A stretch of 64,000 nt of DNA. Source: a virus. How positions within the stretch are numbered: the first letter of the stretch is position 1; each line of letters starts with the position of its first letter. The notes under the pieces were generated by a model. That model was not told where the DNA came from, ran no database searches, and was given only the letters and a program-made list of their open reading frames with translations. The stretch is taken from positions 1-64,000 of the IMG/VR virus record IMGVR_UViG_3300045988_143931, one strand, 5' to 3'. Shown in pieces: positions 4,398 to 56,307 of the stretch. The position numbers were made by a program, and so were the translations under genes.

Positions 4398-5078
4398 TCA
4401 CATCTCCCTCTCTGGTTTTCTACCACATGATTTAGCTTCGGTACAATATCCAACCTCGTCACATTTTGCATGAAAAAGATTATCTACAATCCACTTCCAT
4501 TCATCTGAATATCCTCTCAAAGCATTACAAATATCTCTAAAAAGCTCTCTGTATTCCCAATATGCTCTACTGCACATACGTTGCCTACTCATATCAACAA
4601 GATTTCTAAGATTACGCTTGTCTACCATTTTTGATGAGTATGCTAATGGTAACGCCATAGTTGCATCTTCTACTGGTACTCCATTGTCAATCATTGTTTT
4701 TATAGTTCTGTTGATAGTATCCATTAATGCCTTCCATACAGGATAATATCCGTTTTTATCAATAGAACTTGGAGTAGTATATGTAAAACCATCACCTTTT
4801 GAATAATTAATATATCTTGTACTTGCCTGTAATCTTGTTGGTGCTCCACCAATATGTGTATAATATTCTCTTAAAACTTTAGCGGAATATCCATTAATAA
4901 TCATTTCTACATTGACATATTCCATAACACGTCCATGCCCTGACTTAATACAGTCTAATCCACGCTTATAATTCTTTTCATTGTCAGAAACATTTGCTCC
5001 CCAACACACTCCTGCCCTTTGCCCCATTAATGTAATAGGATTCTTAGTTGTTTCTGGTAAAATTGTAATTGTTCCCAT
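4398..5078 (-). CDS. thyX: Flavin-dependent thymidylate synthase-like protein (ThyX family, divergent signature)
   Basis: SGHGRVMEY, ...QASTRY and LPLAYSS...NLRNLVDMSRQR...AYWEY follow the ThyX layout. The RHR of the ThyX motif reads YTH. Start set to the ATG at 5078. Confidence 0.65.
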   Translation of the reverse strand: MGTITILPETTKNPITLMGQRAGVCWGANVSDNEKNYKRGLDCIKSGHGRVMEYVNVEMIINGYSAKVLREYYTHIGGAPTRLQASTRYINYSKGDGFTYTTPSSIDKNGYYPVWKALMDTINRTIKTMIDNGVPVEDATMALPLAYSSKMVDKRNLRNLVDMSRQRMCSRAYWEYRELFRDICNALRGYSDEWKWIVDNLFHAKCDEVGYCTEAKSCGRKPEREM

Positions 5079-22847: not shown

Positions 22848-23702
22848 TTACTCTTCACCAATAAATACCAATCTATCAATATATTCTCTACCTTCACCCT
22901 TGAAAATAGGAATATCTGTATCAATAATCCACTCATTTTCTGATTTAGAAAAATCTCTTAAATGTGCAGTTGCCATGACACCATCAGATTCAATAATAAT
23001 CTTATTTCTTACACAGCAACTTCCACGCTTTTGATAAGTCGGCAAATCATTCCAGTTGATGCCTTTCTGAGTCATAAGCATATCCTGAATATCATTACAT
23101 GACTTATTCTGTAATTCCTTGTGTGAGAAATTGGCTTGACCTACCATCTGAATTGAATTACGAGAAGCATCAAGTTGTCGCCAATATACGAGATTTGTTA
23201 CTTCTTCTTTTGGAATATTGAAACAACGAGCATCGAACATTGCACCTTTATCAACTGCTAAAGATAAAATATGTTCATAGTTTTCATGAGTATTATCCAT
23301 ACATTCGTAAGTATATGTACAATAATCTCCTACATTATTAGCAAAAGCCCTATTAAATGCCATAGTAGCCATACTTGCTGCAATACTACAAATCTTCTGA
23401 ACTTCATAATCAAACCATGCTGAAGATGTAAGTTTCTTATAATCAACAAGAATAAGTGTAATCTCATCTGACTGCGTGTAACCAAGAACACAGCCCTGAA
23501 TATTCTCGCATAAGTATCTCATTGTTTCCTGCATTGATTTAATCAAAACTTCATCAAAAGGCTTCTGAAATCCTCTTGTGAATGTGTGGAACGCTTTTCC
23601 ATCAATTCTGATAGCAACTGGACACCTTCTCATCAGTTTTGTCTTTGGAATCTGCTCATAAAATGTCTTCATCCTAACGCCTAAATCATCATGTACTGGC
23701 AT
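22848..23702 (-). CDS. tRNA-His guanylyltransferase (Thg1)-like 3'-5' nucleotidyltransferase
   Basis: IRIDGKAFHTFTRGF.KPFD and SDEITLIL match Thg1 N-terminal motifs. Confidence 0.85.
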   Translation of the reverse strand: MPVHDDLGVRMKTFYEQIPKTKLMRRCPVAIRIDGKAFHTFTRGFQKPFDEVLIKSMQETMRYLCENIQGCVLGYTQSDEITLILVDYKKLTSSAWFDYEVQKICSIAASMATMAFNRAFANNVGDYCTYTYECMDNTHENYEHILSLAVDKGAMFDARCFNIPKEEVTNLVYWRQLDASRNSIQMVGQANFSHKELQNKSCNDIQDMLMTQKGINWNDLPTYQKRGSCCVRNKIIIESDGVMATAHLRDFSKSENEWIIDTDIPIFKGEGREYIDRLVFIGEE

Positions 23703-26330: not shown

Positions 26331-27422
26331 TCAGTTCACACCATTATGTGTTTCGCCATCTGAGTAATAAATGTTCCAACCCTTGAATAGCTCAATTAAC
26401 TTATCATTATCCCAATCATATTCATTACAATGTGTAATGGCGATTGATTTTTTATCTCCAAAGTTTCCTGCATCATTAGAGCATCTACTATATAATTCTC
26501 CTAAATCAAGTGTTCCATATCTCAATGTATCCTGGAATGGATTTGGTACATTTGTTTTATCAAACATATACTCATTGATAAATCTCTTATTACATTCAGA
26601 TGGGAATTTACCAGCACCATGTCTCGTTAAATAAGTACGAGATACATAACAAGTTTCAATACTTATCTCATCATTCCATTCAACATTTTCAATTATTCTC
26701 TTGGGATTTTCTATACCTGTATTAGACGGTGTTAGATGTGGAAAATATTCTGTGTTGTTCTGATCAAGCAATAAACCTTGTGCAGCTTCAAATACAATAT
26801 TGTCAAATTGATTTAAGAAATAATTATCTGATATAGCCAATGAGTGATTATTCATAAAATCCCAATCATCTAAAAAGTGTTCAAATATACCATTATCAAG
26901 GAATATTTTTGACCATTCATCTGTTAATATAATATTCTCTCTTTCAAATTGTTCTAAGTAGTATTCCCTGATATGATTATCTACATCAGTTATGCCAGCT
27001 TTATATCTTTTGATAGTTTCAAAAATTCCCAAGCCACAACTACCATGTTTATTTTTTCCACGATTTTCTTCTATAATCTGATTTGCCATCATATCAAAAG
27101 GTGTAGTCAACATACAATTTTGATTGATATAAACATTCGTAATATATCCTAATTTCATCAATTCATCATATTCCTGCTTAAAGATAATTGGATTAACAAT
27201 AAAATCCTCAGATAAATATGTACTTGCATGATTGAATGTTCCAGATCCAAAATGATGAAAGACATGTCTGATTCCATCAGGCGTTGTTACGGTATGTCCT
27301 CTCTGAGCACCACCATTTGAACAAACAACAATACTATTAGGTTTCTGTGAGAAATAATCTGTCATTAATCCCTTTCCACAATCTCCAAAGTTAGCACCTA
27401 TTACAATCTTAATGTCTTTCAT
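26331..27422 (-). CDS. purZ: Adenylosuccinate synthetase-family enzyme; PurZ candidate (N6-succino-2-amino-2'-deoxyadenylate synthase)
   Basis: PurA motifs FGDCGKGL (P-loop), NGGAQRGHT and GSCGLGI. Short 363-aa form in a phage context. The family call is firm; the PurZ specificity is inferred. Confidence 0.6.
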   Translation of the reverse strand: MKDIKIVIGANFGDCGKGLMTDYFSQKPNSIVVCSNGGAQRGHTVTTPDGIRHVFHHFGSGTFNHASTYLSEDFIVNPIIFKQEYDELMKLGYITNVYINQNCMLTTPFDMMANQIIEENRGKNKHGSCGLGIFETIKRYKAGITDVDNHIREYYLEQFERENIILTDEWSKIFLDNGIFEHFLDDWDFMNNHSLAISDNYFLNQFDNIVFEAAQGLLLDQNNTEYFPHLTPSNTGIENPKRIIENVEWNDEISIETCYVSRTYLTRHGAGKFPSECNKRFINEYMFDKTNVPNPFQDTLRYGTLDLGELYSRCSNDAGNFGDKKSIAITHCNEYDWDNDKLIELFKGWNIYYSDGETHNGVN

Positions 27423-31137: not shown

Positions 31138-31689
31138 CTAATCCTCTTTAAACAAATCCTGTGGAGCATCAACTGGCGCATTGTAATCCAGATACTCATA
31201 TTCCTGCACTTCGTATCCAAGCAATCCAAGAAACTGTCTTGTAGGGAACTTTCTCACATATCGTTTGTATTCCTTAATCTGTTTATTGTAATTGCTGCGA
31301 TACTCTGCAATCATATTCTCTGTCATAGATAATTCATTCATAAGAGTCTTATAATTCTCATTGGACTTCAGCTCAGGATATGCTTCTGCAACTGCCGTAA
31401 TAGCTGTTGTTACATTCTCAATATCTCCTGTTGATCCACGACCATCCGCAACTGCTGTCAATGTATCAGCTTCATGTTTGTCATACTGTTTTACGCAATC
31501 AGCAAGGTTATACACAAGGTCAACTCTTCGCTTTTCCTGTACTTTAATATCTGATGATGCTGTATTTACCTGCTCCTCAAGTGCAATAGCTTTATTCTGC
31601 GAACTCTGTACACCAAATACAATCATCAAAATAACCGCTAATACTCCTACGCCAATAATTACTGGCACTTTCCAATTTGTGTTCTTCAT
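31138..31689 (-). CDS. lemA: LemA family protein
   Basis: N-terminal TM segment, then the LemA pattern ...EKRRVDLVYNL...YPELKSNENY...YNKQIKEYKRYVRKFP. Confidence 0.85.
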   Translation of the reverse strand: MKNTNWKVPVIIGVGVLAVILMIVFGVQSSQNKAIALEEQVNTASSDIKVQEKRRVDLVYNLADCVKQYDKHEADTLTAVADGRGSTGDIENVTTAITAVAEAYPELKSNENYKTLMNELSMTENMIAEYRSNYNKQIKEYKRYVRKFPTRQFLGLLGYEVQEYEYLDYNAPVDAPQDLFKED

Positions 31690-32163: not shown

Positions 32164-32457
32164 TTATTCTCCAAACTCACAAGTGTCACATGTTGAAAAA
32201 TACTTATCGTGATCTATGCAGCATTGTGGTCTGTTATCGTCTTCATCAGTTTCTTCATTAAATTTAATATAAAATGGAGTACAATCACAGACCAATATTG
32301 ATGCGATTGACATTCCGTAAATAATGGCAGATTTACACTCTTGATTATCCTTGAATATTGAACAATTGACCATCTTGTTAAATTCTTCAGACCCAATGAA
32401 ATTCAATACTGTTTTCTGTAATTCGGTTGAATCAATTAGCTTTTTATAATCATCCAT
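32164..32457 (-). CDS. Hypothetical Cys-rich protein
   Basis: ORF track. SD AGAGG. Confidence 0.55.
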   Translation of the reverse strand: MDDYKKLIDSTELQKTVLNFIGSEEFNKMVNCSIFKDNQECKSAIIYGMSIASILVCDCTPFYIKFNEETDEDDNRPQCCIDHDKYFSTCDTCEFGE

Positions 32458-32505: not shown

Positions 32506-33396
32506 TTACTCAGATATGATTTTCTGGAACATATCATCTACTGAATCCAATACGTCATATCTCTTATCAAATGCTGCCGTTGAACTTCTTGCAAATTTAC
32601 GCTCTACCATGTCTATAAAATAAGTGAAATTGCCATCATCGCCCATATAGAACTCATTCCATTCATCATCAGACATCAATCTTCTAACATTCAACTGGTC
32701 AATGGCAAGATTATCAAAGCTAACTACCTTAAATTTCTCAATAATATCTGCAAGATTTTCATATAGCCAATTCTGCTTTACAACAATGTTTTCATGATCT
32801 TCTGAATAAAAATCATCACCACGTCTTAAATGTTTATAACCAAGAATCAGCATCTTCAGATCATTATTCTCTAAAGCTTCTACATCCGATGGCTTTAATA
32901 CCCCGTTGATTACATGAATGACCGCATTTGGATATTTCTTAATAAGTTCAATAAATTTTTCTGTGGGATTTACAAGTGATACACCAAGACCATAGATAAG
33001 TTTTTCATCAACAAGCTTTTTAATAAGTTCTTGTTTTTTCTCAAAATGAATCTGATTTACAGTCATATTTGCAATGACTTTCTTCTCTTTGAGTTTTTCC
33101 AAGAATGGAATTAAATCAGGATGACTTGTAGCATCACCACCACCAATAGCAACTTCCTGATAAGGATGAAGTGTGTTAATGAATTTCTCATTCAAAATAT
33201 CTCCAAATTTTCCATCTGTTGTGCTACCTTCATGGCAGAATGGACATCCCATATCGCAAAAATTACAAATTTTTATATCCATATTCTCTGCAAAAGCTGG
33301 TACAAACTCATCATCTTCTGTTTCTCTGATCTTTGTTCCATCACTCAGAATAGTAGTGAAAAAGTTACCATTCTTATATCTTCCTAATAATTCCAT
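32506..33396 (-). CDS. Radical SAM enzyme
   Basis: CxxxCxxC cluster motif CDMGCPFCHEG near the N-terminus. SD TAGGAGG. Confidence 0.8.
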   Translation of the reverse strand: MELLGRYKNGNFFTTILSDGTKIRETEDDEFVPAFAENMDIKICNFCDMGCPFCHEGSTTDGKFGDILNEKFINTLHPYQEVAIGGGDATSHPDLIPFLEKLKEKKVIANMTVNQIHFEKKQELIKKLVDEKLIYGLGVSLVNPTEKFIELIKKYPNAVIHVINGVLKPSDVEALENNDLKMLILGYKHLRRGDDFYSEDHENIVVKQNWLYENLADIIEKFKVVSFDNLAIDQLNVRRLMSDDEWNEFYMGDDGNFTYFIDMVERKFARSSTAAFDKRYDVLDSVDDMFQKIISE

Positions 33397-33412
33397 TCTT
33401 AAATCCTCCTAA

Positions 33413-33796
33413 TTAATTGTAACCATAATATCCAAATGCATATACGGTCTCGCCATTTGCTCCTGTATAAGATTCTTCAAAAGTCTCATACTCTTCAGAA
33501 ACATTGTTCCAATATTCTTCAGAAGTACAATAATCTGATTCTGCTAAAACACGATTAAATTCATCGTCATTATTCCAATCTATGCCAGGATATTTTGGTG
33601 CTTTTGTTCTCCAATCCACTGCTTGTTTGAATTTTTCAATCATCTCTTCTTTTGTATACAGTTTGTGAGAACCCCATCTTTCTATGTACATATTCCCTTT
33701 TTCAAATTCATCATATTCTTTTTTGCTACACATTGTTAAACTATGTGTTGAACTGCTATTTGTTTCAAAAACTCCACGTCTAATCTGTCTCTTCAT
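33413..33796 (-). CDS. Hypothetical protein with N-terminal motif MKRQIRRGVFETNSSSTHSL (short paralogue)
   Basis: The first ~20 aa are nearly identical to 33800..34531, then the sequences diverge. SD GGAGG. Confidence 0.65.
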   Translation of the reverse strand: MKRQIRRGVFETNSSSTHSLTMCSKKEYDEFEKGNMYIERWGSHKLYTKEEMIEKFKQAVDWRTKAPKYPGIDWNNDDEFNRVLAESDYCTSEEYWNNVSEEYETFEESYTGANGETVYAFGYYGYN

Positions 33797-33799
33797 ATT

Positions 33800-34531
33800 T
33801 TAATCCTCCATTCCATAATCATCTCTTGGATACTCATGATCAATAGCATCCATATTTACTAATCCTGCTTTCTTCATATCTGACCAATAACAATATTCGT
33901 CACCATCCTGAATAACAACATACTTCTTATTTATCAGATATTCTTCTAATGATATATTCTCTTTTTTGAGGAATCCACTAAGCATATCTTCATCAACATA
34001 CCCTGTATATGGCTTATCAAAATGAAAATATCCATTATCTCCCTCCCAATATTCGATTGTATCAATTTTCCAATCTTTTTCTTTCTGTTCAAGCCACTCA
34101 TTAAGTTCATCCTCTGTCTTACCATACTTTTGTGCATATTCACTATCTTTATTCTCTGGATGATTTTTATCAGCGATTGAATCTGAAATCATAGGAATGA
34201 CAATCTTTTTAAGACCAGGAACATATTTTAATGCAAGTGTTTCAAGTTTCTTATAATTCTCATCATTATATTCATGCACTAATGAAGCACAAGCATACAA
34301 CCATTTATCATGAAAGTTACCCAAAGCTCTAAATGGACTTCTGCCAAATTCCATATCATGATCCCAAATATGCCATTCGCAATCCTTTTCACCAGTTTCT
34401 TTGTCATCCCACAAATAAAAATCCTTAGAAATCTCGTCTGGCGTATAATGTTCATCGTTTTTCATGATACAAAGTGAATGCTGACTTGATGAATTTGTCT
34501 CGAAAACACCTCTACGAATCTGTCTTTTCAA
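33800..34531 (-). CDS. Hypothetical protein with N-terminal motif MKRQIRRGVFETNSSSQHSL (long paralogue)
   Basis: TTG start 9 nt after AAGGAGGT. AGAGAATATA box at 34556. Confidence 0.65.
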   Translation of the reverse strand: MKRQIRRGVFETNSSSQHSLCIMKNDEHYTPDEISKDFYLWDDKETGEKDCEWHIWDHDMEFGRSPFRALGNFHDKWLYACASLVHEYNDENYKKLETLALKYVPGLKKIVIPMISDSIADKNHPENKDSEYAQKYGKTEDELNEWLEQKEKDWKIDTIEYWEGDNGYFHFDKPYTGYVDEDMLSGFLKKENISLEEYLINKKYVVIQDGDEYCYWSDMKKAGLVNMDAIDHEYPRDDYGMED

Positions 34532-34597: not shown

Positions 34598-34873
34598 CTA
34601 CTTTCTATTAATCCATTCCTTAAACTTATTAAAATCATCTTTTGTAAACACAATATCCGAATAATAAAAATCCTTATTCCTAATAATCGCCCAAATTTTC
34701 TTCAACTTTTCAAAGAATGGTCTTTGCTGAGTATAAAAATTGCCATTCGTATAGGTCAAAAAAGCGTAATCTCCATCTTCATAATCGGCGATTTTAAAAT
34801 GGATACCCTCATCACAACCGCATTTACAGCTTACAATCAACTCATCATCTTTAAAATTCTTAAACATTGCCAT
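34598..34873 (-). CDS. Hypothetical protein
   Basis: ORF track. SD AAGGAG. Confidence 0.6.
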   Translation of the reverse strand: MAMFKNFKDDELIVSCKCGCDEGIHFKIADYEDGDYAFLTYTNGNFYTQQRPFFEKLKKIWAIIRNKDFYYSDIVFTKDDFNKFKEWINRK

Positions 34874-34884
34874 AATAATCTCCT

Positions 34885-35223
34885 TTACTTGCTGTTTCCA
34901 AGCCCAACCTTATAATCATCTTTCACATCAATAGTAACTTCTCGCTGGAATTTCCCTTCCTTGTCATACAAAGATAAGTAATATCTATTACCACGTTGTT
35001 CTAATACGACATCTTCATTCTCGAATAACTGAACTCGCTTCTGTTTCTGTACTGGTTTATTTTCTACTTTTAAGTTATTTATTGCCTCCTTTGAACCAAC
35101 AAGGATTGGTGATTTTAATTCTTCAAGGATACACCTAATATCATCATCAAGATTGCCATATCTGTTTGTGTGCCTATCAACTGCTTTAATAACATCATTC
35201 TCAAGTAATAATCTGTTTCCCAT
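34885..35223 (-). CDS. Hypothetical protein
   Basis: Start moved to the ATG at 35223, after AAAGGAG. Confidence 0.6.
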   Translation of the reverse strand: MGNRLLLENDVIKAVDRHTNRYGNLDDDIRCILEELKSPILVGSKEAINNLKVENKPVQKQKRVQLFENEDVVLEQRGNRYYLSLYDKEGKFQREVTIDVKDDYKVGLGNSK

Positions 35224-35224
35224 T

Positions 35225-35689
35225 TTAATATTCTCCTTTCCACTCTCCCAACTCATAAAAATCATTAATCTGGTCATCTAATTTTCTAACTTGCTTTCTT
35301 AAATCATACTCTTCTTTCTTACTATCTGTTCTCTGACACTTCTTCCGTAATTCAATACGCTGCTTAGTCAGTTCATCATACTTTTCAGATACATCAATCT
35401 CATCTACGACTTCAATCCCAATCTTCTCACCACAGTGCGGACAAAACTGAATTGGATAGTTGTCTGTCTGTACAAATTCGTCTTCATATGATGTAATAAC
35501 TTCTGTATATGAAGTACAGAATCTCGGAATATATCTTTCATCATCCCAACAATCATCACTATAAATTAAATCTTCATCTGTGAAAATGATGGCTTTATCA
35601 TTCTGGATTTCATCACAGCAATGTTTAAATGGCTTGTACTTGTATGAATGTGTATCATTGAATTTTAACTTGATTAGCTCTATCTTCAT
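35225..35689 (-). CDS. Hypothetical protein with a zinc-ribbon (CPHCG)
   Basis: Start moved to the ATG at 35689, after AGGAGAAT. Confidence 0.6.
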   Translation of the reverse strand: MKIELIKLKFNDTHSYKYKPFKHCCDEIQNDKAIIFTDEDLIYSDDCWDDERYIPRFCTSYTEVITSYEDEFVQTDNYPIQFCPHCGEKIGIEVVDEIDVSEKYDELTKQRIELRKKCQRTDSKKEEYDLRKQVRKLDDQINDFYELGEWKGEY

Positions 35690-35699
35690 ATTTATTCTC

Positions 35700-36173
35700 C
35701 TAGCTAAATTTCCACCAAAAATCATAAATTTTATGAATATGTTGATAACCTTTGTGTAATTCACCCTTATATCTGCGAATCGCTTTATTGGACTGTCGCT
35801 TCAAATAACTGCTTCTTTTACCTCTATACCATCTTTTATAATATGGTTTTGGATTTTCAACATATCCCAAACCTTTAATCAATATCTTATCTTTATATGT
35901 TACAGCATAAGGATATCTACACGACACTCTTTCTAAATATTTGAGATGATTTTGATGCCTTAAATATCTCTCACGCTTATTCATTCTCTTTTTCTTGGAA
36001 TGATTCTTATGCTTTTCTTCATCGTGTTCATACCAATCACTACAATGACCAAAAGAATAAACCTTGCCACCAACTTTATCGCACCAAACACAGTTCTCAA
36101 TATCTTCTTCGTCAATGTATGATTTATATTTTTCAAAGTCTTCATATCCATAAAGGCAATCTTTACATTTCAT
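35700..36173 (-). CDS. Cys-rich protein with a basic C-terminus
   Basis: CKDC...CVWC. SD AGAGGTGAT. Confidence 0.55.
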   Translation of the reverse strand: MKCKDCLYGYEDFEKYKSYIDEEDIENCVWCDKVGGKVYSFGHCSDWYEHDEEKHKNHSKKKRMNKRERYLRHQNHLKYLERVSCRYPYAVTYKDKILIKGLGYVENPKPYYKRWYRGKRSSYLKRQSNKAIRRYKGELHKGYQHIHKIYDFWWKFS

Positions 36174-36191
36174 CAAATCACCTCTTTTATT

Positions 36192-36368
36192 TTATTCTCC
36201 TAATTTCCTTCCACACCAAGGACAATACGAAATATATTCTTTCTGATGAACAAATCCATCGTCATATTCATCCCATTCAGAAGTTTCAATATCCAAATAA
36301 TATTCATTTGTCAGTGGATCAACATATATCTGATTGTCAGGTGAATCATAATTACAACGGTTACACAT
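36192..36368 (-). CDS. Small zinc-ribbon protein
   Basis: CNRC...CPWCG. ATG at 36368, after GAGG. Confidence 0.55.
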   Translation of the reverse strand: MCNRCNYDSPDNQIYVDPLTNEYYLDIETSEWDEYDDGFVHQKEYISYCPWCGRKLGE

Positions 36369-36372
36369 ACAC

Positions 36373-37257
36373 TTACCTCGCTCTATCACATTCGTTAAAA
36401 TCTAAAAGCATCTTATATTTATATTCTCCAAATCTTTCTTTCCAACGCTGCTTTGCTTTATCAGTATCCCAACTAAAAGGCATCATATGGTAATTGATGA
36501 GGAAACATGTATCTAAAACAACATCAGAATTAACATGATACATAGCTGTCATGTATTGATATGAACCGTAACAATGATGCTGATAATAATGAGCTATCCC
36601 ATCTTCATCAAATGTTTGTGTACTCAATTTGCCTAAATCGTGATACAAAGCACCTATTCTGAATCTTGCAGGATAAGCATATTTTGTAGAAAATAATCTT
36701 GATGCATATTTGCAGTGTTCAAATAAATTCATTGTATGATGCGGACTTTTCTGATCAAATCCTCTCATATCTGGAATATCATTTGGTTCGTAATCATTTA
36801 ATAAATTATGAATAATAATCTCATCGAATCCTTCCTCGTAGAACGGAATCTGAAATTTTCTAATCTGCTTATCCAACACAAAGTCAGGTACAGGATGTTC
36901 TCTATGTAGATTATCTTTTTTACACTGTTCAAATGGCTTTGGAATAATTACACATACTTTTCTGACATTTAAGCCATTTACTTTCATCATAATTGCTCTG
37001 CGAGATTTCATAGTCAGATTAGTCGCATCTGCGATTACATTCTTTTTATTCTCCAAATTCTTACGGATTCTATCATGAAAAATTTTGAATACTTCTTTAT
37101 TATGTTCTTGATTTTCGTAATTACCAGTCAATTCCTCACGAATTGCATCGGATGATACGATTATTGTATTTGGATTCTCATTGGCAATCTGAGTGGTAAT
37201 GGTTGACTTGCCACTACCACTCAAACCACACATAATATACAATGTAGGTTTATTCAT
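36373..37257 (-). CDS. P-loop polynucleotide kinase-like domain fused to an HD phosphohydrolase (RNA end-healing candidate)
   Basis: Walker A CGLSGSGKST with an AAA_33/PNK-like layout. C-terminal HD motif ALYHDLGK...YYQHH. Overlaps the RNA ligase gene by 8 nt. Confidence 0.7.
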   Translation of the reverse strand: MNKPTLYIMCGLSGSGKSTITTQIANENPNTIIVSSDAIREELTGNYENQEHNKEVFKIFHDRIRKNLENKKNVIADATNLTMKSRRAIMMKVNGLNVRKVCVIIPKPFEQCKKDNLHREHPVPDFVLDKQIRKFQIPFYEEGFDEIIIHNLLNDYEPNDIPDMRGFDQKSPHHTMNLFEHCKYASRLFSTKYAYPARFRIGALYHDLGKLSTQTFDEDGIAHYYQHHCYGSYQYMTAMYHVNSDVVLDTCFLINYHMMPFSWDTDKAKQRWKERFGEYKYKMLLDFNECDRAR

Positions 37258-38639: not shown

Positions 38640-39263
38640 TTAATCTTCTAATTTGTTACCTTTTGCTTCATTACAAAGCTTACACATTGTTTGATAGTTA
38701 CTAATATCATCAATACCACCTTTTGAGCGTGGCATAATATGATCTTTTGTCATTAAAATTTCATCACCATTATCATCAACTGCATACAAATTTAGATGAT
38801 AACTTTTATCCTGTAAATGTCTTTCTTTTGCAAAATATTTTCCTTCAATTCCACAAACTACGCATTTACAACCTTTAGTAAAAAATGTTTGGTATCTTTG
38901 GCTATTGCCCTTAATCAAATCTCCATCAAAATCAACTTTTGCAAGTTTTTTATCTTTCTCAAATAAAACATCCTTTACTTTATCTCTGACTTCTTCTATT
39001 GAATAGATTTCTTTCCTAAGTAATTTTGTAGGATTAAAATCTTTTAAAAGCGTTTTTACTTCACCTAATTTAAAACATTTTTCAAATAGCGGTTGCTTGT
39101 GCCAAGTTACGGATAATAATTCCGTATCGTTTGTAGGTGACATTGGATTATTATTCTTAGGGAAATCGGTTTCTAAAAAATCCCGTATTGTCTCAAACCT
39201 CAAAGACAATACCTTATCATCGACTTTGTATTGGATTTTAAATTTTTTATCTTTTCTTCGCAT
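38640..39263 (-). CDS. HNH endonuclease
   Basis: DHIMPRSKGG...N...CKLCNEAKGN. Start at the ATG at 39263, after AAGGAG. Confidence 0.8.
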   Translation of the reverse strand: MRRKDKKFKIQYKVDDKVLSLRFETIRDFLETDFPKNNNPMSPTNDTELLSVTWHKQPLFEKCFKLGEVKTLLKDFNPTKLLRKEIYSIEEVRDKVKDVLFEKDKKLAKVDFDGDLIKGNSQRYQTFFTKGCKCVVCGIEGKYFAKERHLQDKSYHLNLYAVDDNGDEILMTKDHIMPRSKGGIDDISNYQTMCKLCNEAKGNKLED

Positions 39264-39348
39264 AAAACATATCTCCTTATAATTTAATGTCGTCACCTAT
39301 GTATTCTCTCTTATTTTTCCAAAACTCCAAAGAAAATGCTTCATTCCT

Positions 39349-41581: not shown

Positions 41582-41779
41582 TTATTTGAACTCTATCTTG
41601 TTCCTTTTTAATACTTTAACTGCCTTATCATAATCAGTTTCAGCTACTTTGATATTTTTCATCTTAGTTGGTTTTGGCTTAATCCAATGACGGCATTCAG
41701 TAATGTTTTCGTCATACCACATCAAACCGCTTTCACAATATTTATGCCATTGGCAGTCATTGTTACCACATTTACTCAT
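41582..41779 (-). CDS. Small Cys-rich protein
   Basis: ORF track. Its ATG overlaps the end of the methyltransferase gene. Confidence 0.55.
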   Translation of the reverse strand: MSKCGNNDCQWHKYCESGLMWYDENITECRHWIKPKPTKMKNIKVAETDYDKAVKVLKRNKIEFK

Positions 41780-42635
41780 TTATGTATCCTCTTACTCTCT
41801 TGCTTCCAACCTCAAAAATATCCTTATCTTTCTCAAAACATATGTAATTCCTATTTGTATTCATAGCTGCGACTGCAGTTGTACAACTTCCTGCACATGA
41901 ATCAAGGACTAAATCGCCTGGATTTGTGTATGTCTTAATCATATACTCGCACAGTGCTAACGGTTTTTGTGTCGGATGCAGACACGATTTTTGTTTGTCG
42001 CTTGCAAAAGTCAGTACACTCCTTGGATAACGGTCGGTTTCACCGCCACCAGATAATTCTTTATTCATTCTTCCATAAATTTCTGTATTATTCTGTGTTT
42101 CTATATACTTTGTATATGAATGAATTGGTGTATGTCCTGTTGTTTTCTGTGGATGATATGTAGGAAGTTTTTTATAGAATATTAAGATGTTTTCATGTGC
42201 CTTCATAGGCATTTTTTTAGCATTTAGATGACCAGTAGCTTGTGTTTTTTCCCATATCCATTTATAACGCAACATACTGAGATTGGAAGCACCTAACACT
42301 TTATCAAAAGGTGTTTGTGCAAATAATGCAATACAACCATTGTCTTTAATAATTCGATTATAATGAGTCCATAAACCGTCTTTTTTATTCTCATAAAACC
42401 AATCTCTTGTATATTCAAGACTACTATTTGTTACTTGAGCCAACTTAAATAAATCTGTTTCATAGAAATATTGTCCTGATAACTCAACGTAATCATTTAA
42501 TGGTAAAACAGAATCCCATTTACAATGAGTTGTTCCATAAGGAAGATCCGTAAGTATAAAATCGACTGACTTATCATCAATCTTTTTCATACCTTCAAGG
42601 CAATCTTCGTTGTATATTTTGTTAATCTCTAACAT
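41772..42635 (-). CDS. DNA methyltransferase, N6-adenine or N4-cytosine (beta-class, motif IV before motif I)
   Basis: Catalytic DFILTDLPYG (DPPY-like) at the N-terminus. SAM-binding VLDSCAGSCTT near the C-terminus. Confidence 0.8.
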   Translation of the reverse strand: MLEINKIYNEDCLEGMKKIDDKSVDFILTDLPYGTTHCKWDSVLPLNDYVELSGQYFYETDLFKLAQVTNSSLEYTRDWFYENKKDGLWTHYNRIIKDNGCIALFAQTPFDKVLGASNLSMLRYKWIWEKTQATGHLNAKKMPMKAHENILIFYKKLPTYHPQKTTGHTPIHSYTKYIETQNNTEIYGRMNKELSGGGETDRYPRSVLTFASDKQKSCLHPTQKPLALCEYMIKTYTNPGDLVLDSCAGSCTTAVAAMNTNRNYICFEKDKDIFEVGSKRVRGYINE

Positions 42636-56157: not shown

Positions 56158-56230
56158 TGTGCCATATGGGAGTTGAACCCATGACACCTCGATTAAAAGT
56201 CGAGTACTCTACCTACTGAGCTAATGGTAC
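56158..56230 (-). tRNA. tRNA-Lys (anticodon UUU)
   Basis: Manual cloverleaf: GTACCAT/ATGGCAC acceptor (A3:C70 mismatch), anticodon stem CTCGA/TCGAG, loop CTTTTAA, T arm ATGGG-TTCAACT-CCCAT, discriminator A. No encoded CCA. Confidence 0.85.
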
Positions 56231-56234
56231 GAAA

Positions 56235-56307
56235 CTAGACTGGTGGGATTCGAACCCACGAATGACAGAATCAAAATCTGTTGTGTTGACCACTTCACCA
56301 CAGCCCA
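56235..56307 (-). tRNA. tRNA-Gln (anticodon UUG)
   Basis: Manual cloverleaf: U1-A72 and G73 (Gln-like identity), anticodon stem ACAGA/TCTGT, loop TTTTGAT, T arm GTGGG-TTCGAAT-CCCAC. Confidence 0.85.

Follow-up and report, generated by a model that had tools for sequence, protein, structure and literature searches.

A phage-borne module of a radical-SAM enzyme and diverse acidic proteins with a common N-terminal peptide

The Locus and Its Module

The subject of this report is a group of three genes in a 64,000-nt stretch of viral DNA (positions 1 to 64,000 of IMG/VR record IMGVR_UViG_3300045988_143931), referred to throughout as the window. Tightly packed on the minus strand, at the positions given in a preliminary description of this DNA, lie three open reading frames (ORFs) in the order long type, short type, enzyme: a long, "A-like" protein of 243 aa (33800..34531; ORF, alignments and AlphaFold2 model), a short, acidic, "B-like" protein of 127 aa (33413..33796; ORF, alignment A1 and AlphaFold2 model), and a radical S-adenosylmethionine (radical-SAM or rSAM) enzyme of 296 aa with a single [4Fe-4S] cluster motif (32506..33396; Pfam PF04055 and PHROG 16999). 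The first two begin with nearly the same 20 residues, which we term the tag: MKRQIRRGVFETNSSSQHSL in the 243-aa protein (34472..34531, minus strand) and MKRQIRRGVFETNSSSTHSL in the 127-aa protein (33737..33796, minus strand). As detailed below, tagged proteins and rSAM enzyme constitute a widespread, conserved, phage-borne and self-contained two-family module, with the tag as its common denominator. Radical-SAM enzymes with dedicated protein partners are of a known kind; for this subfamily, its tag, its partner families and their distribution among phages we found no description in any library or paper searched, and literature searches on the tag peptide and on phage-encoded radical SAM returned nothing on the module.

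The 243-aa ORF starts at a TTG codon, 8 nt past an AAGGAGG ribosome-binding site, and its relatives use TTG or ATG at that codon. The 127-aa ORF begins 3 nt past the stop codon of its neighbour, and its own stop codon is separated from the rSAM start codon by 16 nt, a gap previously given as 13 nt. A scan of the locus for promoters and terminators gave promoter matches at chance level and no terminators. The window has a G+C content of 31.7% and carries nearly every long ORF on the minus strand; a six-frame translation of all 64 kb yields no tag motif elsewhere.

A Conserved Tag on Unrelated Proteins

Of the first 20 residues of the two tagged proteins, 19 are identical (MKRQIRRGVFETNSSSxHSL), position 17 being Q in one and T in the other. 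The DNA encoding them matches at 34 of 60 nt; among positions 2-20 there are 18 with the same residue in both, at 11 of which the codons differ synonymously, and all four Ser codons differ in family (TCN versus AGY), a switch that no single synonymous step can connect. It is therefore the peptide and not the DNA that has been conserved, and the duplication must be old, which agrees with the earlier proposal that the peptide is under selection and not recently duplicated. Past the tag the resemblance ceases. BLASTP of the window pair beyond residue 22 gives a best E of 0.34, and the A-like and B-like family profiles align over columns 1-28 only (profile-profile comparison, 99.4% probability), bearing out at the level of whole families the initial observation of a common N-terminus followed by unrelated sequence.

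Across 288 distinct stand-alone proteins the tag consensus is M-K-R-Q-I-R(99%)-R-G-V-F/Y-E(99%)-T/S-N-S-S-S-x-H-S/A, in which R, E and S16 are conserved at 99-100%, G8 at 67% and the second Arg at 59%. The N, S14, S15 and H of this count were preset by the search pattern; N13, S14, S15 and H18 are invariant also in alignments A1, A2 and A4, which were made without that pattern. Nine of ten contiguous tag residues are near-invariant, and for 275 of the 288 proteins the core R-x-G-h-F-E-T-N-S-S-S-x-H-S begins at a distance of 8-9 residues from Met1. The tag is basic, unlike the acidic bodies that follow it, and AlphaFold2 models it as disordered or low-confidence coil (residues 1-14 of the 243-aa protein, 1-16 of the 127-aa protein; predicted local distance difference test, pLDDT, 33-69), the first strand of the body beginning at residue 17. 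Judged from these alignments, the tag appears to behave as a portable element across unrelated or highly diverged bodies. A twin-arginine (Tat) signal peptide, which R-R-G-V-F resembles, was rejected, as was a Sec signal: the polar E-T-N-S-S-S-x-H-S follows, there is none of the hydrophobic sequence (12 or more residues) that such signals have, and the second Arg is conserved only to the extent given above.

The Tagged Bodies

The 243-aa protein displays the motifs FETNSSSQHS, EFGRSPFR, DKWLYACASL, TGYVDED and VVIQDGDEY, the body being acidic; it has 563 homologues, none of the 120 listed having a Pfam domain on record. Its AlphaFold2 model is confident (pLDDT 85.6, predicted template-modelling score, pTM, 0.84) except for residues 1-14, which fall below 50. 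The 127-aa protein (pLDDT 89.2, pTM 0.78, residues 1-16 coil) is a member of a large family of 115-135 residues, with 1394 clusters at 50% identity at E<=1e-3. Alignment A1 of this B-like family shows little or no variation at R6, E11, N13, S14, S15, H18 and a C-terminal ..A-F-G-Y-Y-G-Y-D, the conserved C-terminus of the window protein reading ETF..YT..G..VYAFGYYGYN.

Neither tagged protein has a match in Pfam, NCBIfam or PADLOC, and 24 diverse tagged relatives have none there either. Comparison with PDB sequences by phmmer and profile searches returned noise only, and Foldseek searches of both models against the PDB, and of the 243-aa model against BFVD, reached best E values of 0.24-2 with template-modelling (TM) scores of at most 0.27; as modelled, both bodies appear to lack a known fold. 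The sole library match is PHROG 28997, a family of unknown function, with which the window pair aligns over residues 4-28 only (E=2.3e-3 and 2.7e-4). It is matched by 22 of 24 A-like relatives (best E=5e-115), with which the 243-aa protein of the window aligns in A4. Profile and structure searches thus bear out the preliminary statement that no described family accommodates either paralogue. Two candidate folds were tried and rejected. A flavodoxin-like reductant, prompted by the acidity and a Ser/Thr-rich loop near the N-terminus, finds no such fold by Foldseek and the bodies are heterogeneous; for a HAD-like phosphatase, the top Foldseek matches are indeed SupH-type phosphatases, but at a TM-score of 0.12 that is not meaningful.

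Stand-alone tagged bodies are of many types, most of which fall within one diverged A-like superfamily (PHROG 28997) typified by the motifs E-F-G-W, a K..Y helix, G-Y-I-D-H and G-N-D-N, the window counterparts being G-Y-V-D-E-D and Q-D-G-D-E-Y. In 24 very diverse A-like proteins including the window's, R6, F10, T12, N13, S14-16, H18, Y58 and D116 are invariant, while E11, G43, H117 and D150 are at least 90% conserved (A4). B-like, Cys-rich and several other body types are without the D-H and G-N-D-N motifs and keep the tag intact; the glycine of an [EA]-F-G-[WYR] hairpin is kept in the A-like and B-like types and absent from several others. What the bodies have in common is their charge: all 287 are acidic, with a median isoelectric point (pI) of 4.39, a median net charge of -17 and 97% below pI 5. 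Short copies that are truncated resemble pseudogenes. Bodies with a Cys cluster, such as PYCTNCFYNGCLIDCNCQF (C-x2-C-x5-C-x3-C-x-C), occur in loci L155, L158, L161, L167, L170, L183 and L184, mostly with a single tagged gene and beside rSAM genes of 41-48% identity. Such a cluster could hold zinc, or else an Fe-S cluster provided in trans for an rSAM enzyme that has no auxiliary cysteines.

Linkage to the Radical-SAM Gene and Distribution

Adjacency that is near-obligate even at deep divergence, presence in the same phage records and gene fusions strongly support a joint function of the motif proteins and the rSAM enzyme encoded downstream of them, as first proposed from this one locus. Among 35 loci found via the long protein, each one extending far enough also holds a further tagged ORF and an rSAM gene. 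For 80 IMG/VR loci found via the short protein, an rSAM gene (43-100% identity) comes next, within a few tens of nt, in about 76, the rest being truncated contigs or having the rSAM gene 3 kb away or upstream. An unbiased test of linkage is provided by 80 GTDB loci found by rSAM alignment alone (38-79% identity): where at least 1.5 kb of upstream sequence is available, 62 of 68 carry an ORF with the strict motif on the same strand within 3 kb. The possibility raised at the outset, that these proteins belong to a known family without genomic linkage to rSAM genes, is therefore contradicted by the linkage found.

Dereplication at 80% rSAM identity left 76 loci (38-100% identity), with one to five tagged ORFs within 3.5 kb in 73 of them: one copy in 22 loci, two in 37, three in 8, four in 4 and five in 2. 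In 65 of these 73 the rSAM gene is preceded by its tagged genes, and the median gap between the two is 17 nt. A B-like gene that accompanies another type stands nearest the rSAM gene in 32 of 34 loci, so that the window shows the commonest arrangement. Any other gene family is found in at most 7 of the 76 loci and no third gene recurs, from which we conclude that the module is self-contained.

We found a full-length rSAM homologue in 25 of 50,697 phage genome records, namely those of 15 Lak megaphages, of 9 Microcystis phages (Ma-LMM01 among them) and of Salmonella phage Arash; these very 25 also hold the A-like tagged family, which answers the question of co-occurrence across phage genomes in the affirmative. 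A search with the tag peptide retrieves 24 records only. It places five tags in Lak-A2 (one record checked), agreeing in number and approximate position with the five tagged ORFs beside the rSAM gene in locus L115, and one in each of the Microcystis phages, coinciding in Ma-LMM01 with the tagged gene. The papers on Arash and Ma-LMM01 are silent on the module genes. At the DNA level the nearest sequenced relatives of the window's rSAM gene are in Lak megaphages, at about 65% identity.

Phages of Bacillota carry the module, as do Lak megaphages (of Prevotella) and phages that have been cultured, of Microcystis and Salmonella; some contigs from metagenome-assembled genomes (MAGs) are labelled archaeal. 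The MAG labels of certain module contigs read Methanobrevibacter, Methanomassiliicoccaceae, Absconditabacterales and Saccharibacteria (L178, L182, L187; L125, L126, L177, L180); these contigs may be phages of such hosts or binning artefacts. Both Saccharibacteria loci (L177, L180) hold an rSAM gene and no tagged ORF within reach. Campylobacter phage rSAM clusters, considered as a further case, gave no evidence of the module. In Ma-LMM01 (L196), gp129 (4631..4969), which has a phage ProQ C-terminal-like domain (PF24203, E=6.7e-15), lies between the tagged gp130 and the rSAM gp128; gp131, upstream, is annotated "histidyl tRNA synthetase" and has no Pfam match.

The Fused Form

In Salmonella phage Arash the two families are joined in one polypeptide. 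Its gp146c, of 477 aa, is annotated "methyltransferase" and consists of a tagged domain followed by an rSAM domain, starting MYLTQIRYGFATNSSSSHSV..DDFGYGW..GYIDHES..ILGGNDN. Several hundred metagenomic proteins show the same fusion: a search with gp146c retrieved 726 proteins, of which the top 120 are all 435-570 residues long with 92-100% query coverage, down to 30% identity. The tag is present in 117 of these 120, 9-10 residues from Met1 in 94 of the 117, the other three having A-A-N or A-N-N variants; GGNDN is kept in 119, DH[EQ]S in 117 and FGW in 114. The N-terminal domain of the fused proteins matches no known family, and no stand-alone tagged gene lies within 4-8 kb of the fused enzymes. 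Position 11 of the tag is Glu in 99% of the 288 stand-alone proteins and Ala in 100% of the fused ones. This pattern would fit E11 being a contact needed for association in trans and dispensable once the partners are tethered; it could equally be a lineage trait.

The GenBank label of gp146c (L197, OQ632216; 3491..4921) looks wrong in view of the tagged-domain/rSAM fusion. Labelled "RNA ligase", gp143c of the same phage (5338..5790) also looks misannotated: it matches Acb1 (PF23474, E=1.3e-15), a phosphodiesterase directed against the cyclic-oligonucleotide-based antiphage signalling system (CBASS), so that an Acb1-like anti-CBASS gene stands 0.4 kb from the fusion.

The Radical-SAM Enzyme

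Membership of the third protein in the radical SAM superfamily, first suggested by its CDMGCPFC motif, is confirmed by PF04055 (33.5 bits against a cut-off of 29.5, E=6e-8). Residues 33-292 also align to positions 7-287 of the 288-position profile PHROG 16999 ("Fe-S oxidoreductase", E=1.8e-43), and a relative bears the name "organic radical activating enzyme" in one source. Homologues form more than 7288 clusters at 90% identity, the top 120 all being at least 81% identical. The cluster-binding CxxxCxxC, C47 DMG C51 PF C54, occupies residues 47-54 (33235..33258, minus strand). The protein has only four cysteines, 44, 47, 51 and 54, and in alignment A3 (20 relatives down to 42% identity) C47, C51 and C54 are the sole conserved Cys columns, C44 not being conserved; the same three never vary in an alignment of 75 rSAM proteins of the split form with the 120 fused ones. 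The enzyme therefore has no SPASM or twitch domain.

The other affiliations raised in the preliminary description, NrdG and QueE, are likewise negative by cysteine conservation, NCBIfam scores and structure-profile search. The best NCBIfam match, NrdG2 (TIGR02495), reaches 26.1 bits against a cut-off of 131; the twitch model NF033640 gives 12.8 bits against 170, BssD (TIGR04003) 13.2 against 496, and MoaA and other curated models lie far below their cut-offs. No QueE model is among the NCBIfam matches of the window enzyme, and its profile meets the QueE structure 5tgs at E=0.11 in the cluster region only. The closest solved structure for the profile, a tetraether-lipid synthase (E=0.003), is a weak match around the cluster motif only. 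No PqqD or RRE Pfam domain is matched at E<=1 in any of the three window proteins, PADLOC returns a weak partial pVip match only (E=0.005, 14 bits), and the HxsC model scores 17-21 bits against a cut-off of 268. The rSAM enzyme of thymidine hypermodification (M6 gp53) is SPL-like, with its cluster motif at residue 125, and hence belongs to a different family.

What distinguishes the family is a specific N-terminal extension of about 36 residues (Y-K-N-G-N-Y..D-G-T-K-I-R-E-T; in the window residues 1-36, ..YKNGNF..DGTKIRET.DDEF, 33289..33396, minus strand), together with the C-terminal motifs LILGYK..RG, SFDNLA, FYMGDDG and YIDMV. Within the extension, Y7, N9, G10 and N11 are 97-99% conserved in stand-alone enzymes and not in fused ones; with H161 and K181 included, these positions are 97-100% conserved in the stand-alone form only. 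We propose the extension as a candidate docking surface for the tag. The C-terminal part (residues 211-273, LYENLADIIEKFKVVSFDNLAIDQLNV..FYMGDDGNFTYFIDMV, within 32506..32802, minus strand) matches PDB 6pxe_T, deposited as "Holin," at E=2.5e-5 and 27.8 bits; this match drops to E=0.13 with the family profile and may reflect a shared small domain or chance.

Genomic Surroundings

The setting of the module is one of replication, nucleotide and RNA-repair genes, not head genes. Upstream, also on the minus strand, lie an RNA ligase (PF09414, 37250..38569) and a 294-aa, polynucleotide-kinase-like AAA_33 kinase (36373..37257); members of this kinase family lie close to the module in 7 of the 76 loci, and 3-5 of the 76 have an RNA ligase there. 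With them, all on the minus strand, a Thg1-like tRNA-His guanylyltransferase (22848..23702) and tRNA-Lys(UUU) and tRNA-Gln(UUG) genes (56158..56307) make up a set of RNA-repair type. The window further encodes, on the minus strand, a 363-aa adenylosuccinate-synthetase homologue (26331..27422; PF00709, E=1.2e-34). Phage PurA-like genes can be PurZ, the maker of 2-aminoadenine genomes. Other neighbours that can be annotated are a LemA-family protein (31138..31689), an HNH endonuclease (38640..39296) and an N6/N4 DNA methyltransferase (41772..42635), and DNA methyltransferases are found near the module in some other loci. Small Cys-rich ORFs with CxxC pairs flank the module on the same strand (91, 179, 158, 65 and 97 aa; 34598..36389 and 32164..32457), one of them with a weak match to DUF5887; the 91-aa and 97-aa ORFs recur in only some closely related loci and therefore stand outside the module.

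A Possible Role for the Tag

We infer that it is by way of the tag that the rSAM enzyme engages the tagged proteins. Beyond this, we tentatively favour a reading in which the tag is a handle by which the enzyme binds and modifies them. It is favoured because a near-invariant tag, modelled as flexible and held at a fixed distance from the N-terminus, sits on unrelated bodies, with several clients to one enzyme, as is typical of proteins that modifying enzymes act on. Of the two mechanisms initially offered for the motif, recognition or modification by the rSAM enzyme on the one hand and catalysis on the other, the former fits more of the data and the latter is kept alive by the D-H and G-N-D-N motifs; neither is established. 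Under the favoured reading, the rSAM enzyme would recognize the flexible handle in extended form. R6, F10 and E11 would dock it, possibly on the YKNGN extension of the enzyme, and T-N-S-S-S-x-H-S, anchored to the first strand of the body, would be presented to the SAM and cluster site. There the 5'-deoxyadenosyl radical would take hydrogen from one tag residue, most plausibly a serine, and so install a stable modification that the acidic proteins might need for their action. One enzyme could thereby mature several different clients, as one activase or maturase serves several substrates. In the HXS system an rSAM enzyme matures a full-size protein active in phage-bacterium conflict, a precedent for an rSAM-matured effector (PMC13128918).

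A number of considerations weigh against modification. That a residue is altered at all, and which one, we infer. The low AlphaFold confidence of the tag could stem from shallow alignments (30-40 sequences), and the Glu/Ala dichotomy at position 11 may simply track phylogeny. Being fused to the enzyme is what one would more naturally expect of a subunit or a second catalytic domain than of a substrate. D-H-[EQ]-S and G-G-N-D-N are retained in the commonest body type and in 117-119 of the 120 fused proteins, and they look like a metal or active site that might include the tag. To our knowledge, protein modification by single-cluster rSAM enzymes is mainly the work of glycyl-radical activases, and an invariant glycine is not found in the tag, G8 being conserved at 67%; we know of no single-cluster rSAM enzyme that oxidizes serine.

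Some of the same observations would be accommodated if the tag were an unmodified docking peptide, a somewhat doubtful alternative in which it plugs interchangeable acidic subunits into the rSAM enzyme and perhaps completes the active site with its Ser and His. The variable bodies would then be alternative specificity, regulatory or electron-transfer subunits, steering one radical enzyme to different substrates, for instance host proteins that bind nucleic acids, nucleotides or RNA. Fusion is the classic signature of subunits of one enzyme, one to five different tagged genes accompany each rSAM gene, E11 is found only where the partners are separate, and the N-terminal residues of the enzyme are conserved in the stand-alone form only. 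One body type, with the Cys-rich motif C..C..GC...C.C, could hold a cluster supplied in trans, and all bodies are acidic, as are flavodoxin or ferredoxin partners and nucleic-acid mimics. Yet near-invariance of nine in ten contiguous residues, some of them preset by the search pattern though N, S, S and H do not vary in the independent alignments either, goes beyond the usual need of a docking strand. Moreover, acidic bodies make poor candidates for nucleic-acid recognition, Foldseek detects no flavodoxin-like or other known fold, and no third, substrate-like gene is conserved nearby.

It seems unlikely, by our estimate, that E-T-N-S-S-S-x-H-S is instead the first active-site loop of a metal-dependent enzyme superfamily, namely the A-like bodies with D-H and G-N-D-N, which would share one small-molecule or nucleotide pathway with the rSAM enzyme and act at a step before or after it; the short and other types would then be degenerate or regulatory paralogues. 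The ten residues of tag and body, Y58 and D116 included, that are invariant in the 24 A-like proteins, the further four (E11, G43, H117, D150) conserved in at least 90% of them, and the retention of GGNDN, DH[EQ]S and FGW in 119, 117 and 114 of the 120 fused proteins all speak for such an enzyme, and many alpha/beta hydrolases have their first catalytic loop within 10-15 residues of Met1. Against it stand the B-like, Cys-rich and several other bodies that have neither motif but an intact tag, the disorder of the tag in two independent models with confident bodies, and the lack of any resemblance to a known hydrolase in sequence or fold. Far more improbable is a capsid-targeting or processing signal like that of the T4 internal proteins, cut after V-F-E and functionally unrelated to the neighbouring rSAM gene. 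The T4 prohead protease site is L/I-x-E, which V-F-E resembles, and adjacent hypervariable genes here have only a short N-terminal peptide in common. The strongest conservation, however, falls past the presumed point of cleavage (T-N-S-S-S-x-H-S), the tag and one rSAM family co-occur almost perfectly in phage groups that are unrelated to one another, fusion is seen in hundreds of proteins, and head genes are not what surrounds the module.

As to biological role, host takeover or counter-defence is weakly supported by the hypervariable copy number and body type, by bodies as acidic as nucleic-acid mimics, and by neighbours that include an RNA ligase, a kinase, an Acb1-like gene and DNA methyltransferases. 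The broadest formulation would have the tag be a portable activation or docking peptide through which one phage rSAM enzyme arms, or is guided by, changeable acidic decoy-like proteins, a new class of counter-defence or host-takeover system reaching from gut megaphages to cyanophages; taken whole, we consider this rather unlikely. Were it true, one possibility is that the enzyme, though it has no auxiliary cluster, makes a tag serine reactive or cofactor-like, which would be a new kind of chemistry for rSAM enzymes that act on proteins; the other is that the tagged proteins bring the radical enzyme to different targets in the host. If the acidic clients are matured anti-defence factors, a post-translational layer would be added to phage counter-defence. 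For radical-SAM enzymology the module poses the question of what a single-cluster enzyme does with an invariant T-N-S-S-S-x-H-S peptide. It is also large (more than 7288 rSAM clusters, about 1400 short-family clusters and 726 fusion matches) and without functional annotation. Since Ma-LMM01 and Arash are cultured carriers, genetics may be feasible, most readily with Arash on Salmonella.

Comparison With Known Systems

Among known systems, the glycyl-radical activases (PflA with PflB/GrcA, NrdG with NrdD) are alike in being small rSAM enzymes with the SAM cluster only, acting on a short conserved peptide of folded proteins, with several clients per activase; NrdG2 is also the window enzyme's best NCBIfam match, at 26 bits against a cut-off of 131. 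Unlike theirs, the tag is N-terminal and has no invariant Gly in an R-V-x-G-[FWY]-like motif, and the module has no conserved cysteine for a thiyl radical. An oxygen-labile glycyl radical is unlikely in view of two hosts whose phages carry the module, an oxygenic cyanobacterium and Salmonella grown aerobically. The anSME/AtsB enzymes, acting on Ser- or Cys-type sulfatases, offer a parallel to the modification proposed here: an rSAM enzyme oxidizes a serine in a short conserved near-N-terminal motif and makes it a catalytic residue. However, anSME has a SPASM domain with two auxiliary clusters whereas the module enzyme conserves only C47, C51 and C54, and neither the (C/S)-x-P-x-R motif nor an alkaline-phosphatase fold was detected in the module.

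Flavodoxin partners of rSAM enzymes, and the flavodoxin-rSAM fusion TYW1, are small and acidic, with a first strand that is hydrophobic and leads into a Ser/Thr-rich loop near the N-terminus, and are tied or fused to rSAM. The tagged proteins are similarly small, very acidic, rSAM-linked and sometimes fused. Foldseek detects no such fold in either model, and several unrelated body families contrast with a single cofactor-binding fold. The capsid-targeting sequence of the T4 internal proteins is likewise a short N-terminal peptide common to otherwise unrelated products of adjacent hypervariable genes; it has no enzyme partner, whereas the module tag is inherited together with an rSAM enzyme and in some proteins joined to it.

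The HXS system (rSAM enzymes HxsB/HxsC, effector HxsA) resembles the maturation that we propose in its rSAM-dependent processing, including that of the N-terminus, in a His/Ser-rich motif and in its place in phage-bacterium conflict (PMC13128918). It differs in being bacterial and not phage-borne, in having two rSAM enzymes plus HxsD, and in His-Xaa-Ser repeats where the phage module has a single N-terminal T-N-S-S-S-x-H-S. Lastly, the precursors of peptides that are made by ribosomes and then modified post-translationally (RiPPs) and their rSAM maturases have in common with the module a conserved N-terminal segment before a variable remainder, several precursor genes per maturase and tight operons. 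In contrast, the "cores" of the module are folded acidic domains of roughly 75-240 residues, its enzyme is without RRE/PqqD or SPASM, and its conserved segment probably holds the reactive residues rather than preceding them.

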